DNA of 64,000 nt from the sequence record PQ724394.1, one strand, 5' to 3'. Under the pieces are notes generated by a model. That model saw nothing but the letters and a program-made list of their open reading frames with translations, did not search any database and was not told the origin of the DNA. Below are positions 21,712 to 60,263 of this stretch, in pieces (within the stretch, counting starts at the first letter, position 1; each line of letters opens with the position of its first letter). Both the position numbers and the translations under genes were made by a program. Source of the DNA: a phage.

Positions 21712-22175
21712 AATAAATCTCTCAATTTGTTTAGGATGTCGATAAACTCTTTTTCAGTTAGTATTGTATCACATTCTTTGAGGTGGCTTGCCATTGAATG
21801 CTTTAAAACCTTACCTTTAGTGGCTTGTAAAGCTTCTCGGAATCCTTTGTTCTGGAGTGCTGCTTCAAAATACGCACTTTCGTAAAGCTCTTTCCATGCT
21901 TCGGAATATCTTGAAAACGGGGTTCCAAGCCAGAACAACGTGCCACGGTCCTGAGCTCTAGCATAAGCTCGTCCAGCTTTTTGTGCGTCTAACCCGGACA
22001 TCCTAAATATACGTCTTTGTTGTTCAACACTTTTCACCTTACATCCTTGGAGGAATCCTTCGAGTCCACCAAATTGGATACCGTCCATAACGAAAGGCCA
22101 TTTAGCAAAGTTACTTAATGCGCATGATGGCCACGGAAAGTTACTTCTAATTTCTAACTCAGACATCTTTGACAC
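21708..22175 (-). CDS. YbiA/NADAR (DUF1768)-like protein
   Basis: SNFAKWPFVMDGIQFGGLEGFLQGCK resembles the YbiA segment FSNFAAWPIKVDGKTWPTSEHYFQAQK. Confidence 0.55.
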   Translation of the reverse strand: MSKMSELEIRSNFPWPSCALSNFAKWPFVMDGIQFGGLEGFLQGCKVKSVEQQRRIFRMSGLDAQKAGRAYARAQDRGTLFWLGTPFSRYSEAWKELYESAYFEAALQNKGFREALQATKGKVLKHSMASHLKECDTILTEKEFIDILNKLRDLL

Positions 22176-22371
22176 TTATAATCTTGGTAGCGTACCACAT
22201 ACCATGGTCCGGTAATCTGGATTTAATTGACCGCCCACGATATGTTTTTCGCATTATAACAGTCTTAATAACATCTTCATCACAAGCATATGGCGGCGAT
22301 AAGTCGATAACACGATAAGTCACTTCAACCATTTCTAGGCCAAACAGCTTTTTAAGCCATTTCTTAACCAT
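22159..22371 (-). CDS. Hypothetical early protein
   Basis: 70 aa ORF in tightly packed early gene array. Confidence 0.35.
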   Translation of the reverse strand: MVKKWLKKLFGLEMVEVTYRVIDLSPPYACDEDVIKTVIMRKTYRGRSIKSRLPDHGMWYATKIISVKDV

Positions 22372-22372
22372 A

Positions 22373-22567
22373 TTATCCTCGCTTCAAACATTTGATTACA
22401 GATAATTCAGAACCCATACGAACGTCTTCAGTTCCATCGACCCACAGGACGGTGTAGGCTTCTTTAATAGTAGCATTACCTAATTTAAAACCAGGCAAGA
22501 CCTTAGAAATCATTCCAGGAATACCTACACCTTTTAACTGGACGGTTTGTGATAAGAATAGTTGCAT
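22373..22567 (-). CDS. Hypothetical early protein
   Basis: 64 aa ORF, stop/start abutting neighbours. Confidence 0.35.
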   Translation of the reverse strand: MQLFLSQTVQLKGVGIPGMISKVLPGFKLGNATIKEAYTVLWVDGTEDVRMGSELSVIKCLKRG

Positions 22568-22854
22568 TAGAACCTCATCTGAAATCCATGTGATTTAACA
22601 TTACCGCCGTAGATGTCAGAAGTATTGACTTCGCGGGCAGCGCTAGGGTCGATGTTAATATCATGGTTGAGCTTAGTGATTGCTAGGGTGTCACGACCAT
22701 TGACTGTACGGAATTCTACTGGACAAACCACATCAGCATAAGCCTTAATGGATTCACGAGTAGGCTGTTTGTCGGCAGGAACATCTTTACCTGCCTTAGA
22801 GAAAACAACTTCACAGAAATTTTTACGAGTATCGAAATAAGTGGTCATAAACAT
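22567..22854 (-). CDS. Hypothetical early protein
   Basis: Start taken at ATG 22854 (MFMTTYF) with SD gagg; the upstream extension would encode a GC hairpin. Confidence 0.4.
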   Translation of the reverse strand: MFMTTYFDTRKNFCEVVFSKAGKDVPADKQPTRESIKAYADVVCPVEFRTVNGRDTLAITKLNHDINIDPSAAREVNTSDIYGGNVKSHGFQMRF

Positions 22855-22869
22855 AATATTTTCCTCAAA

Positions 22870-22885
22870 GGAGGCCGAAGCCTCC
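22870..22885 (-). promoter_or_regulatory. Intercistronic cUUCGg hairpin (ggaggcUUCGgccucc)
   Basis: Perfect 6-bp GC stem with UUCG loop on minus strand just upstream of an SD; identical 16-mer recurs at 61847-61862. Confidence 0.5.
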
Positions 22886-22895
22886 ATTTTTAAGA

Positions 22896-23261
22896 TTAGA
22901 TATCAAATTCATTCAGAACTACATCAAAGATTGCTTCCAGGTGTTCAGGTTTAGCACGGTTGCTCAGGATGTGACGAATCCAGGTTTTAACCAGAAGCTT
23001 ACGATTATCACCGTTCCAGCAAGGATGGGTACCTAAATCACGTTGACGGAAATCATCATCCAAAGCGATTTTAAAAGTAGAACCTTCCATAGTGATTGAA
23101 ACCGTGATACCATTTTCAAAGCGCATATAAACGTAGTTAGGAGTCATGCACTGTTCGATTTCGCACACTGTGCTGTTGTTGTGTTTCCACAGGCAAATAA
23201 CTTCAGAAGAACCAGCAATACCGTTAGAAACATATTTACGTTCGAAGTTGATGTAGTTCAT
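22896..23261 (-). CDS. Hypothetical early protein
   Basis: 121 aa; preceded by early promoter and a 40-nt leader identical to that of the next gene. Confidence 0.45.
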   Translation of the reverse strand: MNYINFERKYVSNGIAGSSEVICLWKHNNSTVCEIEQCMTPNYVYMRFENGITVSITMEGSTFKIALDDDFRQRDLGTHPCWNGDNRKLLVKTWIRHILSNRAKPEHLEAIFDVVLNEFDI

Positions 23262-23302
23262 TTTATTCTCCAGTTTGTTTTCGTATTATTTGGTACAGGT
23301 CT

Positions 23303-23331
23303 ATAATAACACAACCTGTACCAAAGTAAAC
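23303..23331 (-). promoter_or_regulatory. T4-type early promoter embedded in a palindrome
   Basis: Minus strand GTTTAC-N17-TATTAT; inverted repeat ggtacagg/cctgtacc (23294-23321) flanks the -10. Confidence 0.55.
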
Positions 23332-23335
23332 CGTT

Positions 23336-23704
23336 TTATGCAACTTTAATCCAATTATCTAAATTTAATTCACCTTTGGCTTTCATTTTTTCGATCAGGT
23401 CATCTGCAGTTATACGACCATTTTGATACCATGTAACATCTTCAGAATAACCAGTTTCTTCATCTTCATAGGTCTTACAACGAATCTTACCGGTTATGAT
23501 AGTTTTCAGTTCGTAGGTATCACCGGTAAAAAAGTTTGTTACCAAAATTTTCCAAGAGAAGTCATCAGAAGGACCTTCAGGAGTCATACAACCTACAAAT
23601 TCAAATTGTTCTTTGTACAAGCGCCATTGCATCTCTTTAGTTTCAATAGCTTTATAACCGTCGTGGTCTTTACATTTGATATATGAGTTAAGATTGATTT
23701 TCAT
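23336..23704 (-). CDS. Hypothetical early protein
   Basis: 122 aa; own early promoter. Confidence 0.45.
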   Translation of the reverse strand: MKINLNSYIKCKDHDGYKAIETKEMQWRLYKEQFEFVGCMTPEGPSDDFSWKILVTNFFTGDTYELKTIITGKIRCKTYEDEETGYSEDVTWYQNGRITADDLIEKMKAKGELNLDNWIKVA

Positions 23705-23745
23705 TTTATTCTCCAGTTTGTTTTCGTATTATTTGGTACATGTCT

Positions 23746-23774
23746 ATAGTATCATGCCTACCGGAGATGTATAC
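23746..23774 (-). promoter_or_regulatory. T4-type early promoter
   Basis: Minus strand GTATAC-N17-TACTAT upstream of the gene starting at 23704. Confidence 0.5.
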
Positions 23775-23789
23775 CCTTTTTTTAAGATT

Positions 23790-23820
23790 TAGAAACAAAA
23801 ATGGGACTCCGAAGAGTCCC
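23790..23820 (-). terminator. Rho-independent terminator (cUUCGg hairpin plus U-run)
   Basis: Minus strand gggacuc-UUCG-gaguccc followed by AUUUUUGUUU. Confidence 0.7.
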
Positions 23821-23825
23821 ATAAC

Positions 23826-23987
23826 TTATGCAATAACTTTACCGAAGCAAGCAGCATCTGCACGCAATACTGCACGAGCACGAGCTTGAAGCTTATCAAC
23901 TACCTGATTGATACGCTTGTTAGACGCACGCTTGTAACCAGCGCGTTTAGAGGTTCCGTCAACTACTTTAACTTCTTTCTTAGCCAT
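23826..23987 (-). CDS. Small basic protein (53 aa), hypothetical
   Basis: Own translation MAKKEVKVVDGTSKRAGYKRASNKRINQVVDKLQARARAVLR...; terminator immediately downstream. Confidence 0.4.
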   Translation of the reverse strand: MAKKEVKVVDGTSKRAGYKRASNKRINQVVDKLQARARAVLRADAACFGKVIA

Positions 23988-24340
23988 TTTTAAATCTCTT
24001 AAATTAGGATGCAGGACTTATTGGCATTGCCTGCGCAAGCCCTCAAGGGGAACATAGGTTTTAGATATTTAACGACAGGATAACCGTAAACCTCGTCATC
24101 ATAGCTCTTATCTGTTGCACACCGTTAGCTTAAAGGTTCCGGGTTCGATTTCTCGAGGATAAGATATATACTGATGGATATATAGGCCTTGAGGCGTACT
24201 CCCGATTGGCCATCACCTCGGGGTAGCATGCACTTGCCGCTATAAAATAACATTCAAGAGGTACACCGTAAAACTGCCGGGGTCTTAAAACTATAATGAT
24301 TCGCAAATCATTAATCAGACAGTTCGACGGCTCCTCGATT

Positions 24341-24589
24341 TTACTTCAGGGTAATAATAAAATGACGTACTGCTTTACGAGCTGCTGAAGCCAAAGGCTT
24401 AGCATATTTCAGTTCATCTTTTGCTTCCAATTCAGCGGCCAGAGTAGCCTGAGCAGGATTAAGATGTTTGAAATAACGCAGGATTTCCAGTGCTTCGGCT
24501 TCAACATCAATAGATGCGCCGTAGTTTTCGTGACCGTTGTTCCAAGCGTTGCGTTGCAGTTCAAGAGCGTGATTCAGATGTTTGTTCAT
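24341..24589 (-). CDS. rIII: Lysis inhibition accessory protein rIII
   Basis: 82 aa from ATG 24589 (MNKHLNHALELQRNAWNNGHENYG…), same size and position as T4 rIII; the ORF-track start is an upstream GTG. Confidence 0.75.
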   Translation of the reverse strand: MNKHLNHALELQRNAWNNGHENYGASIDVEAEALEILRYFKHLNPAQATLAAELEAKDELKYAKPLASAARKAVRHFIITLK

Positions 24590-24735
24590 TTTAAATTCTC
24601 GATTCGAGATAAAGATTGGTGGACACGTTCTTCTGAATTTCACTTCCTTTCGGCAAGTCTCTCAGTTGTAGTCCACCGCTTAGGATTCTCCGGTTAACTA
24701 ACTAGTCCGGCAGCCAATCCATATTATTATTTATA

Positions 24736-25059
24736 TCACTTATAAAGACACGGAATAGCTTTATAGTGGCAGGTAACGAATTTCTGTTTAATTTCTTTAG
24801 GCTGTTTAATACCAAGCGCAACTAAAGGATGAGGCACGTTAGCAATCTTACCAACAGGAAGTGGAGTCAAATCACCTACTTCACAAAAACCTTCAGGGAC
24901 ATCAGGCCCTACAGAATAAATTTCGCAAAGTTCAGGGATTTCACCTTGATGAAGTTTGCCAATAACGATACCAGATGCAGTAGTTTCTTCATCACCAGCT
25001 TGTTTTGGTTCGGAAACGAGAATAACATATTCTCCGACCGCTTTAATAGGAAGTTCCAT
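24736..25059 (-). CDS. 31: Head assembly co-chaperonin gp31 (GroES analogue)
   Basis: [25 protein letters not shown]…[15 protein letters not shown] closely matches T4 gp31. Confidence 0.85.
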
Positions 25060-25117
25060 ATTTAATCCATGTTGTTTTGTTGATAGATTAATAATAACAC
25101 GCTATTCTTAAAGCATA

Positions 25118-25417
25118 TTACAGGACAAGCAGAGTTTCAGTCTGAAGCCCATTAATAGAAATCAGTTTATCGAAACGGAATGAACGCCAGTCATTAACCT
25201 TGGTATCAAATACACGAATATAATTAACCGGTTCTTTATTAGCTTCTTGGCCCGGGGCTTGAATTTCTTTATACGGGAGGAGGTCCAGGTCGCGAGTACA
25301 AGTCATACGACGAACGCTACCATCCGCCTTTTCAAACAGAACTTCGTGAGTACCCACAGACAGAATAGTCTTGGCTTTTTCACGGAGTCGAATAGTTTCT
25401 TGTTCAGTTAAAATCAT
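25118..25417 (-). CDS. Hypothetical early protein (31.1-like position)
   Basis: 99 aa ORF downstream of gene 31. Confidence 0.4.
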   Translation of the reverse strand: MILTEQETIRLREKAKTILSVGTHEVLFEKADGSVRRMTCTRDLDLLPYKEIQAPGQEANKEPVNYIRVFDTKVNDWRSFRFDKLISINGLQTETLLVL

Positions 25418-25419
25418 AA

Positions 25420-25653
25420 TTATTCCAGGATAGTTTTAATAGTTGTTGCATTACGCTCTTTTAGAGCACTTAATAGGCTATGGCAATTATCAAGAATAGG
25501 CACTGTTTTGTATTTCATTTCGGCGCGAACCCACTCGGATTTATAGTATGATTTCCAACGAGAGAAAAAGTACTTTTTATATTCCACTGAATAGGCTACT
25601 AAGCTTTCGCCTTTTGAGTTCAGACCTGAAAACTTCACTAATCGAAATTTCAT
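25420..25653 (-). CDS. Hypothetical early protein (31.2-like position)
   Basis: 77 aa ORF. Confidence 0.4.
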   Translation of the reverse strand: MKFRLVKFSGLNSKGESLVAYSVEYKKYFFSRWKSYYKSEWVRAEMKYKTVPILDNCHSLLSALKERNATTIKTILE

Positions 25654-43231: not shown

Positions 43232-46200
43232 ATGGCTGATATTTTAAAACCTGCATTCCGTGCTACATCCGGACTCGATGCTGCGGGCGAGAAAGTTATC
43301 AATGTTGCCAAAGCCGATTACAATGTACTAGATGATGGCGTCAACGTTGAATTCTTTATAGATGAGAACACCATCCAGGCGTACGACGAGACGCGCGGAT
43401 ATAAGAAAGGGTTTGCAGTAATCCATGACCAACGTATTTGGGTTGCTCAACGTGATATCGCTGCACCAGCCGGAACTTTTGTACCTGGTTATTGGACCGC
43501 TACCCGTACTGACCCTAAATGGATTACAGTAGCATCTCCTACGCGCCAGTTGGCTTCCGGTGAATATATTGCGGTGGACTCAGCTGCTAGCTTTACTACA
43601 TTTACTCTGCCTCCTAACCCTACTGATGGTGATACCATTGTAATCAAGGATATCGGCGGCCGTGTAGGTTATAATGAAATCAAGGTTCAATCTAGTTCTG
43701 CTCCAGGCGGTGGTAATCAGAAAATTGTTCGTTTTGGTAACCAGTTCTCTGAAACTCTGATAACCAAACCTTTTTCTTATAACATGCTTATCTTTGCTAA
43801 CCGCCTTTGGCATTTCTGGGAAGCCGGTAACGAAGAACGTGGTATTCGTGTAGAGCCTAACACTGCACAGTTCCAAGCTCAAGCGGGTGATAACGTTTTA
43901 CGTCGTTATACTTCAGGTGCAGTAATTAAATTTACTCTTCCTAAGTATGCGAACCAAGGTGACATGGTTAAAACCGTAGATATCGATGGTCTTGGAAGTA
44001 AGTTCCACTTAATCGTTGAAACCTTTGATGCATCATCTTCATTGGGTAAGCCTGGTCAGCATAGCATGGAATTCCGTACCTCTGGTGATGGGTTCTTTGT
44101 TTATAACTCTGTTGAAAAAGTGTGGTATGTTTGGGACGGCGACCGTCAAACTCGTCTGCGTGTTATTCGTGATGACGTAGAACTTTTGGCTAACGAAAGT
44201 ATTATTGTTTTTGGTCCTAATAACACAACTCCACAAACTATTAATATCACTTTACCTACTAACGTAGCACAAGGCGATACTATTAAAATCGCATTGAACT
44301 ATCTTCGTAAAGCACAGACAGTAAATATTAAGGCTGCTGTAGGTGATAAAATTGCTTCTTCGGTTCAATTGCTTCAGTTCCCTAAACGTTCCGAATATCC
44401 ACCAGATACTGAATGGGTGTTGAATGATGTATTGACCTTTAATGGCAATATAAGTTATACCCCGGTTATTGAACTGAGTTATATCGAAGACACCACTACA
44501 GGTGCTAAATATTGGGTTGTTGCCCAGAACGTTCCTACGGTAGAACGTGTGGATTCTAAGGATGATTTAACTCGTGCTCGTCTTGGTGTTATTGCCCTTG
44601 CGTCTCAGACCCAGGCTAACGTTGACCATGAAAATAATCCTGAAAAAGAACTTGCAATTACTCCTCAGACCTTAGCCAATCGTGTTGCCACTGAAACTCG
44701 TCGTGGTATTGCTCGTATTGCTACAACTGCTCAGGTAAACCAAGACACCACTTTCGCTTTCCAGGATGATTTGATTATTTCTCCTAAGAAATTAAACGAA
44801 CGTACTGCAACCGAAACTCGTCGTGGTGTAGCTGAAATTGCTACGCAACAGGAAACTGATGCTGGTGTTGACGATACCACCATTATTACTCCTAAGAAGC
44901 TACAGACGCGCCAGGGCACTGAAAGTCTTTCAGGTATTGTAAAATATACCTCTACGGTAGATACCACTCCTGCGACTGCTAGGGACACTGTAGGTACTAA
45001 CGTTTATAATAAGAACGTAGGCAATTTGGTTATTTCTCCTAAAGCTTTAGACCAATATAAAGCTACTCAAGCCCAACAAGGTACGGTATATCTTTCTACC
45101 CAATCAGAAGTTAATACTGGACAATCTGCTAGTGGATTTGCTAACAGTGCGGTTTCTCCTGAAACGTTGCATGCTCGTGTGGCTCTTGATACTCGTACAG
45201 GGTTAATTGAAATTGCTACGCAACAGGAAACTGATACTGGAACTGATTATACTCGTGCGGTAACGCCTAAGACGTTAAATGATAGGAAAGCTACGGAAGG
45301 ATTGACTGGTATTGCTAGAATTGCAACCCAGGTAGAATTTGATGCAGGCACGTTAGATAATGTTATTTCAACTCCGTTGAAAATTAAAACAAGACTTAAT
45401 GATACTGCTAGAACTTCTGTCTCAGCAGCCAGCGGTTTGATTGAATCAGGAACCTTATGGAACCATTATACACTAGATATTAGAGAAGCAAATGAGACTC
45501 AACGTGGTACCGCTCGTCTGGCTACCCAGACCGAAGTCAATGTTGGCACTGATGACAAAACCATCATCACTCCTTTGAAATTACACTCTAAAAAATCTAC
45601 TGAAAGTTCTGAAGGTATTATTCGTGTTGCAACGAATACCGAAACCACTGCAGGAACTTCTAAAGTTCTGGCTGTAAGCCCTTCTGGTTTAAAATATGTA
45701 GTACAGTCCGAAACCACTTGGGAAGCTACTGCACTTCGTCGTGGATTTGTTAAATTGACCGAAGGTGCTTTGACTTACTCAGGAAATAAAGTTACCGGTT
45801 CCGGTGTTAAATTTAACTCAGGTACAGGCCTTTATGAGAATGACGATACTGTTCTGAATGCGGCCAACTATCCTAAAACAGGTTATGCGGTTTCATCTTA
45901 TGAGATGAATAAAACTTTGCAGAACTTTTTACCTATAAATGCTACGGCTGTGAACTCTGAGAAATTGGATGGTCTGGATTCACTTCAGTTCATTCGTAGA
46001 GACGTCGACCAAACGGTTAATGGTTCTTTAACCCTGACCAAACAATTGAACCTGGCAGCCCCTCTGGTGTCTTCTAGTACTGCTACATTTACGGATGTTA
46101 CAGCTACTAATTCTACCTTTGGTACAGTGAATGTTGTTAACGGAACCAATAAATGGAAAATAACATCTCCATCTACTGGAACTACATTAACGATTGGCGA

Positions 46201-60097: not shown

Positions 60098-60208
60098 TCA
60101 GAAGTTAAAGAATACACGTACATGGTCAATCATAAAAACTATTGGGAAAATGCTCAATACTACTAACAACACAAACATATTCCAAATTGCTTTAAGTAAG
60201 TTTTTCAT
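60098..60208 (-). CDS. Small hydrophobic peptide (36 aa), hypothetical
   Basis: Own translation MKNLLKAIWNMFVLLVVLSIFPIVFMIDHVRVFFNF; SD ggag and early promoter directly upstream. Confidence 0.35.
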   Translation of the reverse strand: MKNLLKAIWNMFVLLVVLSIFPIVFMIDHVRVFFNF

Positions 60209-60234
60209 AATCATCTCCATTAGTTGATAGGTCT

Positions 60235-60263
60235 ATAATATCATGTCTAATGGAGATGTAAAC
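60235..60263 (-). promoter_or_regulatory. T4-type early promoter whose spacer is complementary to the downstream RBS/start region
   Basis: Minus strand GTTTAC-N17-TATTAT; 12-bp inverted repeat catctccattag (60212-60223) / ctaatggagatg (60247-60258). Confidence 0.55.

Follow-up and report, generated by a model that had tools for sequence, protein, structure and literature searches.

We identified a direct repeat of exactly 41 nt (plus-strand sequence TTCATTTTATTCTCCAGTTTGTTTTCGTATTATTTGGTACA) upstream of two small early genes, 30.8 and 30.7, in the 64-kb stretch of phage DNA analysed here (the window). The repeat is very probably the -10-to-start-codon part of two tandem T4-type cassettes of the promoter-early stem-loop (PeSL) kind that drive these genes, its identity having arisen by lineage-specific exchange and 30.8 being replaceable. 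The features of the locus, listed in the direction of the genes, are as follows, with B denoting the 30.8 cassette and A the 30.7 cassette.

23826-23987, minus strand: gene 30.9, a basic 53-aa product; neighbours the cassettes on their upstream side; annotated as a 30.9 homologue in dhaeg, JS98 and IME08
23791-23822, minus strand: terminator-like hairpin ATGGGACTCTTCGGAGTCCCAT plus T-run, 3' of 30.9, found by terminator scan; stem-loop part of cassette B
23746-23774, minus strand: predicted early promoter P30.8 (cassette B), with -35 GTATAC (23774-23769), 17-nt spacer and -10 TACTAT (23751-23746)
23700-23754, minus strand: repeat copy B, from the -10 to ATGAA of 30.8; exact 41 nt at 23700-23740
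23704-23714, minus strand: SD GGAG within RegB-site match GGAGAATAAAA of the 30.8 leader, a perfect match to GGAGRAYARAA
23336-23704, minus strand: gene 30.8, MKIN-type allele, 122 aa, Pfam PF06019 (GP30.8); bracketed by both repeat copies
23303-23331, minus strand: predicted early promoter P30.7 (cassette A), with -35 GTTTAC (23331-23326), 17-nt spacer containing TGT and -10 TATTAT (23308-23303)
23289-23325, minus strand: hairpin straddling the P30.7 -10, arms 23315-23325 and 23289-23299, 11 bp, 15-nt loop
23257-23311, minus strand: repeat copy A, from the -10 to ATGAA of 30.7; exact 41 nt at 23257-23297
23261-23271, minus strand: SD GGAG within RegB-site match GGAGAATAAAA of the 30.7 leader, a perfect match to GGAGRAYARAA
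22896-23261, minus strand: gene 30.7, 121 aa, Pfam PF06919 (Gp30.7)
22870-22885, minus strand: GC-rich tetraloop hairpin GGAGGCTTCGGCCTCC after 30.7, just ahead of the 30.6 start; an equivalent is annotated in TuIa

The window belongs to Dhakavirus (JS98-like, T4-type) and is 98.6% identical to Dhakavirus dhaeg. The genes of the locus are homologues of 30.9, 30.8 and 30.7. A reading of the sequence alone had reported an identical 40-nt repeat at 23259-23298 and 23702-23741. A repeat does lie there, with different limits and length: the string then quoted is 39 nt long (23259-23297 and 23702-23740), the fortieth bases differ (g at 23298, t at 23741) and identity reaches 2 nt further left. With three mismatches the repeat extends to 55 nt (23257-23311 vs 23700-23754; 52/55 positions match, 95%). 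The two direct copies lie 443 bp apart.

The repeat is neither a chance match nor an artefact. Allowing three mismatches, we found no recurrence in 100 dinucleotide-preserving shuffles. The same pair occurs, at two places per record, in about 37 independent Dhakavirus records, all of which keep both copies at ≥99% identity; because the records are independent, the repeat is not an assembly artefact. With two copies of the exact leader in the window and two places per Dhakavirus record, a dispersed family carrying this leader is also ruled out. What other early cassettes of the window have in common with the pair lies ahead of the start site and is limited to the promoter core.

On the minus strand, each copy spans the -10, the predicted start site about 7 nt past it (near 23739 in B and 23296 in A), a 5' UTR of about 36 nt, the SD GGAG and ATGAA. 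Both copies contain GGAGAATAAAATG, the SD and start codon at the 3' end of the cassette. This agrees with the original description of the repeat as covering the start codon, SD and 5' leader of two ORFs. An early promoter was also correctly placed beside each copy, though not after it: in the gene sense, the promoters are upstream of the repeats. By sequence and homology, each cassette is a putative strong sigma-70-type early promoter with a leader of about 36 nt. P30.8 is preceded by an A/T-rich tract (23775-23800; TTTTTGTTTCTAAATCTTAAAAAAAGG). P30.7 begins 4 nt past the 30.8 stop codon, which adjoins its -35 (AAAGTTGCATAAAACG), and the tract upstream is moderately A/T-rich coding sequence. 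The two promoters belong to a family of at least seven near-identical minus-strand sites in the window (GTTTAC-N17-TAYTAT-AGAC); relaxed criteria give 15 candidates, 14 of them on the minus strand.

Annotation in related phages is consistent with these assignments. TuIa record AJ621579, whose depositors mapped the region, marks these hexamers as promoter signals and GGAG as the RBS. P30.8 is the orthologue of the Mosigvirus/TuIa promoter that the depositors annotated, and the P30.7 cassette is orthologous in T4 (Tequatrovirus), Mosigvirus, Gaprivervirus-like phages and Dhakavirus. No tRNA was found in or near the leaders, nor any RNA family at E ≤ 1 over 22000-25500.

Each promoter is associated with a stem-loop. 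In cassette B, the terminator hairpin proper occupies 23801-23822 and is followed by the T-run; the 75 nt upstream of the P30.8 -35, which hold this hairpin, fold with a dG of -18.4, and an equivalent stem-loop is annotated in AJ621579. In cassette A, the palindrome arms TTTGGTACAGG (23289-23299) and CCTGTACCAAA (23315-23325) enclose the -10 in the 15-nt loop (dG -20.7, z about -5), and the 3' arm falls inside the repeat. One promoter had indeed been recognized as lying within a palindrome, which proves longer than first described. The palindrome (GGTACAGG/CCTGTACC) is orthologous to that of T4. Because it is followed by AAAUAAUAC, with no U-run, the P30.7 hairpin is not a canonical intrinsic terminator.

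This anatomy matches the PeSL cassettes of T4-type phages (Arbiol et al. 2010, PMC2839356; Comeau et al. 2014, PMC4122927), which combine a stem-loop, an A/T-rich tract, a sigma-70-type early promoter (PST/T4 TTTACW-N17-TAYWAT), an SD and a start codon and include a subclass whose stem-loop overlaps the -10 (PMC2839356). The likeness to promoter-plus-stem-loop cassettes proposed earlier is thus upheld: as judged from sequence, both copies sit in PeSL-type early cassettes, with a predicted sigma-70-type promoter, a stem-loop, an SD and a start codon. The stem-loop lies upstream of the promoter at 30.8 and overlaps the -10 at 30.7. As with PeSLs, there are many related copies per genome, located between small early genes; they adjoin insertions, deletions and replacements that distinguish close relatives, with chimeric cassettes at the junctions. 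The pair at 30.8 and 30.7 differs from PeSLs in three respects. With 41 nt exact, they resemble each other far more closely than PeSLs usually do, the identity is limited to one adjacent pair in one genus, and the variation consists mainly in the replacement of alleles of 30.8, a conserved small gene, rather than in gain and loss of ORFans. PeSL membership also involves promoter and terminator activity and mini-circle formation between neighbouring cassettes; the 30.8 and 30.7 cassettes are likened to PeSLs by sequence.

Comparable elements are found at other T4-type loci. In T-even phages, promoter/stem-loop elements are described on either side of the internal-protein (IP) genes (Repoila et al. 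1994, via PMC2839356 and PMC4122927). As far as that account goes, the two cases share a T4-type early promoter and weaker A/T-rich stem-loops that flank small non-essential early genes shuffled between relatives; the locus and the genes are different. T4 itself offers the same locus and genes and an orthologous P30.7 cassette with the palindrome and the GGAG SD, but its 30.8 and 30.7 leaders differ, the identical-leader state being specific to Dhakavirus. Truncaite and colleagues reportedly placed early promoters and RegB sites ahead of both 30.8 and 30.7 in T4.

Both leaders carry a predicted strong RegB site at the SD. The strong-site consensus GGAGRAYARAA (PMC3014915) has four matches in the window against 0.45 expected, and the SD GGAG of T4 30.7 is an experimentally used RegB substrate (PMC9409239). 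The predicted cassette folds stop about 2 nt upstream of GGAG, with the leader unpaired up to that point. We found no regB in the 64-kb window; the Dhakavirus relatives IME540 and fDHCT2 encode a RegB homologue (58% identical). The promoter, leader and RegB roles in this phage are predicted from sequence together with experiments in T4.

The two cassettes flank variable gene content. We identified two 30.8 alleles that are only 62% identical in Dhakaviruses whose flanks are 96-100% identical (the window vs JS98), and the block that diverges from JS98 (23330-23697) ends at both cassettes. JS98 carries the MKTV type of 30.8; dhaeg and IME08, like the window, carry the MKIN type. The allele in the window is 87-92% identical to Mosigvirus and Gaprivervirus-like alleles. 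The flanks show similar identity, and a recent import of this allele from a sampled genus is therefore unsupported. Widening the search to IMG/VR with gp30.7 and with the palindrome pattern gave the same 14 contigs. Phages 212 and C6 have an extra ORF between the stem-loops.

In several Mosigviruses and in TuIa, 30.8 is missing and a single hybrid B/A cassette remains. In AV109 and TuIa, the B promoter and B leader are joined to 30.7 at GGAGAATAAAATGAA. In JM10, the B promoter continues as far as the spacer and is followed by the -10, the leader and the 5' part of 30.7, all of A type. Crossovers in the hybrid cassettes thus fall in one of two places, the SD-ATG region or the -10, within the same -10-to-ATG interval to which PeSL mini-circle crossovers map (PMC2839356). 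The sequence-only reading had marked the repeat as a likely recombination or gene-shuffling junction, to be abandoned if the repeat did not flank variable content in related genomes. Because the repeats flank two divergent 30.8 alleles and 30.8 absences, no refutation arises, and the replacement of 30.8 alleles and the 30.8 deletions with hybrid cassettes support the junction.

For the Mosigvirus deletions, crossovers are proven to lie within the repeats themselves; for the Dhakavirus allele swap this is not proven. The swap could use homology anywhere in the near-identical flanks, so a crossover inside the repeats would not be required. A synthetic deletion-junction query returned no 30.8-less Dhakavirus among its best 60 records, and none of the Dhakaviruses in the ~45 best database records lacks 30.8. 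This lack of 30.8 loss despite 41-55 nt of homology suggests that the repeats are not visibly unstable in Dhakavirus or that 30.8 is under selection.

We compared the leaders of 11 Dhakavirus loci with those of other genera. Only in these 11 loci do the B and A leaders agree, with 0-2 mismatches; between genera, orthologous leaders diverge by 11-23% or more, and the 30.8 leader of T4, which reads ...CTTACACAAACAAAGGAG..., differs from its 30.7 leader. In a Mosigvirus such as PTK, the homology between the two cassettes amounts to about 15 nt. The confinement of this identity to Dhakavirus points to lineage-specific gene conversion. The repeat identity ends at two motifs, the -10 consensus and ATGAA, that every early cassette shares. 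One arm of the ancient A palindrome, the 3' one, falls within the shared segment; in B this arm has no 5' partner, which indicates copying from A to B. Together with small identity differences (89% vs 82%), the orphan arm makes A to B the most likely direction.

We propose that both mRNAs are made from the early promoters immediately after infection, that the initiation regions used to translate 30.8 and 30.7 are identical and that RegB would inactivate both messages by cutting in the SD, as found experimentally for T4 30.7. The 30.8 cassette has its terminator hairpin ahead of the promoter, while the 30.7 cassette adjoins the 30.8 stop and has a hairpin interleaved with the promoter. The P30.7 hairpin would form only in read-through transcripts from P30.8 and may provide the 30.8 message with its 3' stem-loop. 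Three different arm sequences occur at the one promoter position (in E. coli phages, Cronus and Mineola), and the straddling hairpin at P30.7 is missing whenever a terminator precedes the promoter. Among the 15 candidate promoters in the window, the nine that abut an ORF stop have a mean straddling dG of -14.9 vs -6.9 for the six that are spaced from one (Mann-Whitney p = 0.0016). The 41-55-nt identity would be dispensable for function, a footprint of non-reciprocal exchange in this lineage. In the most likely exchange, the 30.7 leader was copied onto the 30.8 cassette, with the shared -10/initiation consensus TAYTATAGAC as the left edge of the tract and ATGAA as its right edge. Direct repeats 443 bp apart would make 30.8 a module that phage homologous recombination can replace and delete.

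The hairpins that straddle the -10 allow a different, if unlikely, interpretation, in which they are a distinct, selected promoter/RNA element and the leader identity is kept to provide one common RegB/S1/RIII substrate. If this interpretation were true, one 37-nt stretch would play two parts, as the DNA promoter of the downstream gene and, in read-through RNA, as a 3'-end or processing hairpin of the upstream gene. The straddling hairpin would in some cassettes, such as P60240, be a switch that sequesters the SD, and 30.8 and 30.7 would form a co-regulated unit and not a mere recombination scar.

Selection on the leader itself is a rather improbable explanation of the identity. Here the shared 36-nt leader would be a cis-acting RNA operator, serving for instance a translational repressor, a small RNA or the S1/RegB/RIII machinery; it would have to match on both mRNAs for 30.8 and 30.7 to be co-regulated, and recombination would be incidental. 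The SD-proximal GGAGAATAAAATGAA is conserved ahead of both genes in all genera examined and fits the long RegB/S1 recognition motif, and the retention of both copies in ~37 of ~37 Dhakavirus records at ≥99% identity is also in keeping with selection. However, the central leader of the orthologous 30.7 cassette varies from genus to genus (Dhakavirus, AAATAATACGAAAACAAAC; T4, GCAATTAAACATCTC; Mosigvirus, AATAAACAACTTAAACAT), individual Dhakavirus genomes have substitutions of their own in just one of the two copies (L001, L006, L010/L011, L021) and the leaders match no known RNA family. The identity also stops exactly at the -10 consensus and ATGAA, as expected of a conversion tract.

We regard excision and re-insertion of 30.8 as very unlikely. 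A 30.8 mini-circle or unequal crossover product would have entered the leader of a 30.8-less ancestor with an A-leader hybrid cassette, so that the inserted gene ended up between two like leaders. Genomes of the 30.8-less, single-hybrid-cassette kind exist, JM10 has the B-type promoter and Dhakavirus-type A leader required of the recipient, and RB49/phi1 has been shown to form PeSL mini-circles whose crossovers fall between the -10 and the ATG (PMC2839356). This scenario does not by itself explain the homogenization, however, because the circle and the recipient must already share the leader. Moreover, 30.8 is present in all sampled Dhakaviruses, and the lack of 30.8 looks derived, being nested within Mosigvirus.

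A tandem duplication, with the repeat as a relic of an ancestral gene plus promoter and 30.8 and 30.7 as old paralogues, can be dismissed as extremely improbable: both ORFs are ~121 aa long and have an ATGAA start and CMTP at the same position, but CMTP is missing from the other 30.8 allele family, the leaders are not identical in other genera, and 100% leader DNA identity that falls to background by codon 3 is incompatible with an old duplication. The initial view that the two ORFs are unrelated holds, and paralogy of gp30.7 and gp30.8 is effectively refuted by their distinct Pfam families, a BLASTP match confined to the CMTP tetrapeptide (E = 0.039) and an hhalign probability of 0.03.

We also observed a separate, unannotated structured RNA element of ~140 nt at 24101-24240 on the minus strand, which may be more novel than the repeat pair. 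The whole-region fold of the rIII-30.9 spacer gives z = -1.1, and the signal of the element is seen only in comparative analysis. A search for RNA families over 23980-24345 returned only a meaningless sR42 match (E = 8).

The repeat pair, read as two PeSL-type cassettes homogenized by exchange, is a further example of a known regulatory module and not a new kind of mechanism. We found no earlier account of the PeSL model for Dhakavirus or for locus 30.9-30.6 in the literature covered, Truncaite et al. 2006 (Virology 344:378) aside, and a search directed at JS98 found nothing specific. Our observations support the model in this genus and at this locus. One locus shows the substrate (cassettes with up to 55 nt of homology), replacement (two 30.8 alleles) and finished deletions, the last with crossovers at two different points within the cassette. 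The 30.8 locus is thus a clean natural example of the shuffling of small early genes in T4-type phages and a simple experimental system for cassette recombination.

Phage dhaeg is 98.6% identical to the window and JS98 is 98% identical outside one block; both are Dhakaviruses. On the minus strand the gene order is 31, rIII, a ~350-nt spacer, 30.9, 30.8, 30.7 and 30.6, with the following features:

24589-24341, minus strand: rIII
23987-23826, minus strand: 30.9
23822-23791, minus strand: terminator-like hairpin and T-run, then an A/T-rich tract, 5' of the 30.8 cassette (cassette B)
23704-23336, minus strand: 30.8 (Pfam PF06019, GP30.8)
23315-23325 / 23289-23299: 11-bp inverted repeat around the -10 of the 30.7 cassette (cassette A), dG -20.7 kcal/mol, z about -5
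23261-22896, minus strand: 30.7 (Pfam PF06919, Gp30.7)

The T4 equivalent of this Dhakavirus locus is the P30.8/P30.7 region, reportedly studied by Truncaite et al. (2006).

We identified an exact 41-nt direct repeat (23257-23297 = 23700-23740) that extends, with mismatches, to 52 of 55 nt (23257-23311 and 23700-23754). The window contains only two copies, and 100 shuffles of it yielded no repeat of like quality (at most three mismatches). In gene sense, each copy runs from a -10 hexamer through AGAC(C/A)TG, where the predicted start site lies, to a ~36-nt leader (TGTACCAAATAATACGAAAACAAACTGGAGAATAAA in both) and ATGAA. Because the copies span the -10 region to ATGAA, the exact repeat comprises approximately the entire 5' UTR and the first five coding bases. 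The sequence-only reading had thus located a real direct repeat, though it quotes a string of 39 nt and places the ends one base too far along. It was right that the two ORFs are unrelated: the sole BLASTP match is the tetrapeptide CMTP, hhalign between small profiles returns a probability of 0.03, and the proteins belong to separate Pfam families.

Elsewhere on the plus strand, short GGTCC/GGNCCN-type repeats at 114-885 (families D5 and D6) are suggestive of a coding repeat of the collagen-like Gly-X-Y kind. At 44657-45633 a ~68-nt repeat occurs six times (families D3 and D8; 60-75% identity, spacings 108-375 nt), probably reflecting a protein motif that recurs in a structural gene.

The -35 hexamers, GTTTAC (30.7) and GTATAC (30.8), lie 17 nt upstream of the copies. 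A pattern search found the extended form GTTTAC-N17-TAYTAT-AGAC(C) at seven minus-strand sites in the window (repeat families D1, D4 and D7); up to the start site, the 55-nt repeat thus consists of ordinary early-promoter consensus. Judged by these patterns, the leader alone is special to the A/B pair. In GenBank record AJ621579 (phage TuIa), promoter-signal annotations cover the orthologous hexamers, GTTTACTCT and TACTAT, with the two labels exchanged; GGAG is labelled a ribosome-binding site, and stem-loops are marked at the flanking hairpins. On the strength of its gene naming and annotation style, we attribute this record to the group that mapped the region. The 17-nt spacing, the seven-site family and the TuIa annotation bear out the earlier assignment of a T4-type early promoter to each copy.

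We compared 22 loci in gene sense. Tequatrovirus (T4), Mosigvirus, Gaprivervirus-like phages and Dhakavirus have orthologous A cassettes, whose central leader varies between genera; cassette B differs between genera much more than A. The B leader matches the A leader (0-2 mismatches) only in 11 of the 22, all Dhakavirus loci. Mosigvirus B has TATAGACTTGTACCA in common with A and diverges afterwards, and several Dhakavirus genomes carry private substitutions in a single copy of the repeat leaders. Because paralogous leaders are identical while orthologous leaders diverge, these comparisons indicate concerted evolution, rather than constraint, as the source of the identity. The ancient A palindrome has its 3' arm within the shared segment, an arm without a 5' partner in B; the Dhakavirus leader is 89% identical to A leaders of other genera versus 82% to Mosigvirus B. 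Given this orphan arm and these identities, we favour copying from A to B, of a tract that would have TAYTATAGAC as its left edge and ATGAA as its right.

The sequence-only reading had proposed a likely recombination or gene-shuffling junction, a view that would fail if the repeat did not flank variable gene content in related genomes. Such content is present as replacement, deletion and insertion, with 30.8 alleles swapped in some relatives and 30.8 deleted, leaving B/A hybrid cassettes, in others. The window, dhaeg, IME08 and IME341 (Dhakaviruses) encode a 122-aa MKIN-type 30.8, and JS98 and most other Dhakaviruses a 110-aa MKTV-type; the alleles are homologous, with only about 62% DNA identity. 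Between the window and JS98, the divergent block (23330-23697) extends from after ATGAAAA to just 5' of the P30.7 -35, with 96-100% identity either side of 30.8. Allele families are incongruent with taxonomy: T4 has an MKT-type, Mosigvirus and Gaprivervirus-like phages an MKIN-type, and Dhakavirus both. Crossovers anywhere in the near-identical flanks suffice for the Dhakavirus swap, and the available polymorphisms do not place its junctions inside the repeats.

A synthetic query in which 30.9 and the B cassette were fused to the 30.7 ORF with nothing in between gave uninterrupted matches in Mosigviruses JM10, SQ17, PTE-Eco05 and AV109/114/115/116/118, and in TuIa from the terminator onward. 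These genomes lack 30.8, and the one cassette in each is a B/A hybrid. In AV109 and TuIa, a Mosigvirus B promoter and B leader switch to 30.7 inside GGAGAATAAAATGAA. In the JM10 hybrid, B-promoter sequence reaches as far as the spacer and gives way from the -10 onward to TATTATAGACCTGTACC and a Dhakavirus-type leader; the first ~180 nt of the JM10 30.7 gene are Dhakavirus-like and the rest Mosigvirus-like. Both crossover zones fall in the -10-to-ATG interval where RB49 and phi1 mini-circle junctions were mapped (PMC2839356). No Dhakavirus without 30.8 appeared among the best 60 records of the deletion-junction query, so that in this genus the long repeat shows no visible instability.

Phage 212 (locus L007, 1653-2003) and Dhakavirus C6 (locus L038, 1407-1763) have an extra proline-rich ORF of 116-118 aa (MNDRYNHTFT...), missing from the window and most relatives, with the 30.9 terminator on one side and a second terminator, preceding cassette B, on the other. 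The gene after 30.7 also varies: the window's 288-nt 30.6 is replaced by a 615-nt '30.6A' in TuIa (locus L037, 550-1164) and a 483-nt ORF in Jiaodaviruses (loci L041 and L042; 1353-1836). A GC-rich tetraloop hairpin precedes each of the three.

Cassette A begins 4 nt past the stop codon of 30.8, and no hairpin lies upstream of it; its inverted repeat encloses the -10, in line with the earlier description of one promoter inside a palindrome. At promoters of 30.7 homologues, the hairpin arms are GGTACAGG/CCTGTACC in E. coli phages of four genera (one T4-group variant preserves pairing via a G-U pair), AGGGTTATGG/CTATAACCCT in Erwinia phage Cronus and TTGGGTGGT/ACCACCCAA in Klebsiella phage Mineola. 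No straddling hairpin occurs at promoters preceded by a terminator hairpin (those of all B cassettes, of the hybrids and of Klebsiella phage Nispero). Because the arms differ, pairing is kept and the hairpin is missing after terminators, selection appears to act on it as a structure. We do not term the cassette A hairpin a terminator, since no U-run follows it.

We scored 15 candidate early promoters in the window, some of which may not be real promoters:

14848, 23308, 23751, 29459, 30751, 38530, 38819, 39893, 43161, 56533, 56876, 59318, 60240 and 60789, minus strand: -10 positions
51146, plus strand: -10 position

Nine candidates at most 14 nt from the upstream stop have a mean straddling dG of -14.9 kcal/mol, versus -6.9 for six at least 38 nt away (Mann-Whitney p = 0.0016); mean dG of the upstream 75 nt is -9.0 versus -17.4 (p = 0.016). 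Stop-abutting candidates carry a hairpin across the -10, and spaced ones an upstream terminator-type hairpin instead. The interleaved hairpin is probably the compact counterpart of the upstream stem-loop and would act on read-through RNA from the preceding gene.

At the 60240 promoter (~60200-60250, minus strand), an 11-bp inverted repeat (ATCTCCATTAG / CTAATGGAGAT; dG -19.8, z -5.6 to -5.9) straddles the -10, and its 3' arm includes the SD GGAG of a downstream 36-codon ORF. The SD and RegB site would be hidden in read-through transcripts and exposed in those begun at P60240. The T4 P30.8 cassette has a similar SD-pairing stem.

Both A and B leaders contain GGAGAATAAAA, an exact fit to the strong intergenic RegB consensus GG*AGRAYARAA (PMC3014915); the window holds four consensus sites versus 0.45 expected. 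The T4 30.7 SD GGAG is a standard RegB substrate in experiments (PMC9409239, citing Truncaite et al. 2006). No regB gene lies within the 64-kb window; IME540 and fDHCT2, Dhakaviruses with the same repeat, encode a RegB homologue. We infer that RegB would cleave both leaders in the present phage; this and all other functional claims for the locus draw on sequence and T4 experiments. In the Dhakavirus-like contig L021 (IMG/VR UViG_2706795356, 170473 bp), the 30.7 leader SD region reads AAACCAAAGGATAATAAAATG, not AAACTGGAGAATAAAATG, and the GGAG RegB site is gone from this copy only. The adjoining 30.7 gene is more divergent (89% identical to the window's).

Between rIII and 30.9 lies a ~140-nt non-coding element (24101-24240, minus strand; GCGGCAAGTGCATGCTACCCCGAGG...CAGATAAGAGCTAT) that looks like an undescribed structured RNA and is possibly mobile. 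RNAalifold of six sequences gives 42 pairs, seven with compensatory double changes, and G-U pairs occur in gene-sense orientation only; we found no Rfam match and no tRNA. The element is present in the window, dhaeg, JS98, VR5-like L021, Mosigvirus PTK, phage 212, locus L019, Nispero and Cronus, and missing from the T4 group, IME341, IME08 and compared loci L009-L011, L012, L018 and L020, varying within each genus. Between genera its sequence is nearly the same, with conservation far above that of the flanks, and blastn places it once in each of 404 phage records (157 at ≥99% identity), mostly unannotated. The ~110 nt directly upstream of the 30.9 start (~23988-24100, minus strand; GATGACGAGGTTTATGGTTATCCTGTCGTT...CCCCTTGAGGG...GCAGGCAATGCCAATAAGTCCTGC) are better conserved across four genera than adjacent genes, and are possibly a structured 5' UTR. 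Locus L019 has an apparent compensatory pair there (GATGGCGAGG...CCTGCCGTT), and Gaprivervirus-like phages a CCCTTCGAGGG variant.

Promoter-early stem-loop (PeSL) cassettes of T4-type phages share their parts with A and B, with subclasses whose stem-loop sits upstream, in the gap between the two boxes or across the -10 (PMC4122927, PMC2839356), which supports the likeness drawn in the sequence-only reading. At the level of sequence, the A/B pair shows each of the testable features that define a PeSL cassette, apart from an A/T tract, which is not clear in cassette A. The pair is a further example of this known type, as a specialist would expect, and the ~140-nt element may exceed the leader repeat in novelty.
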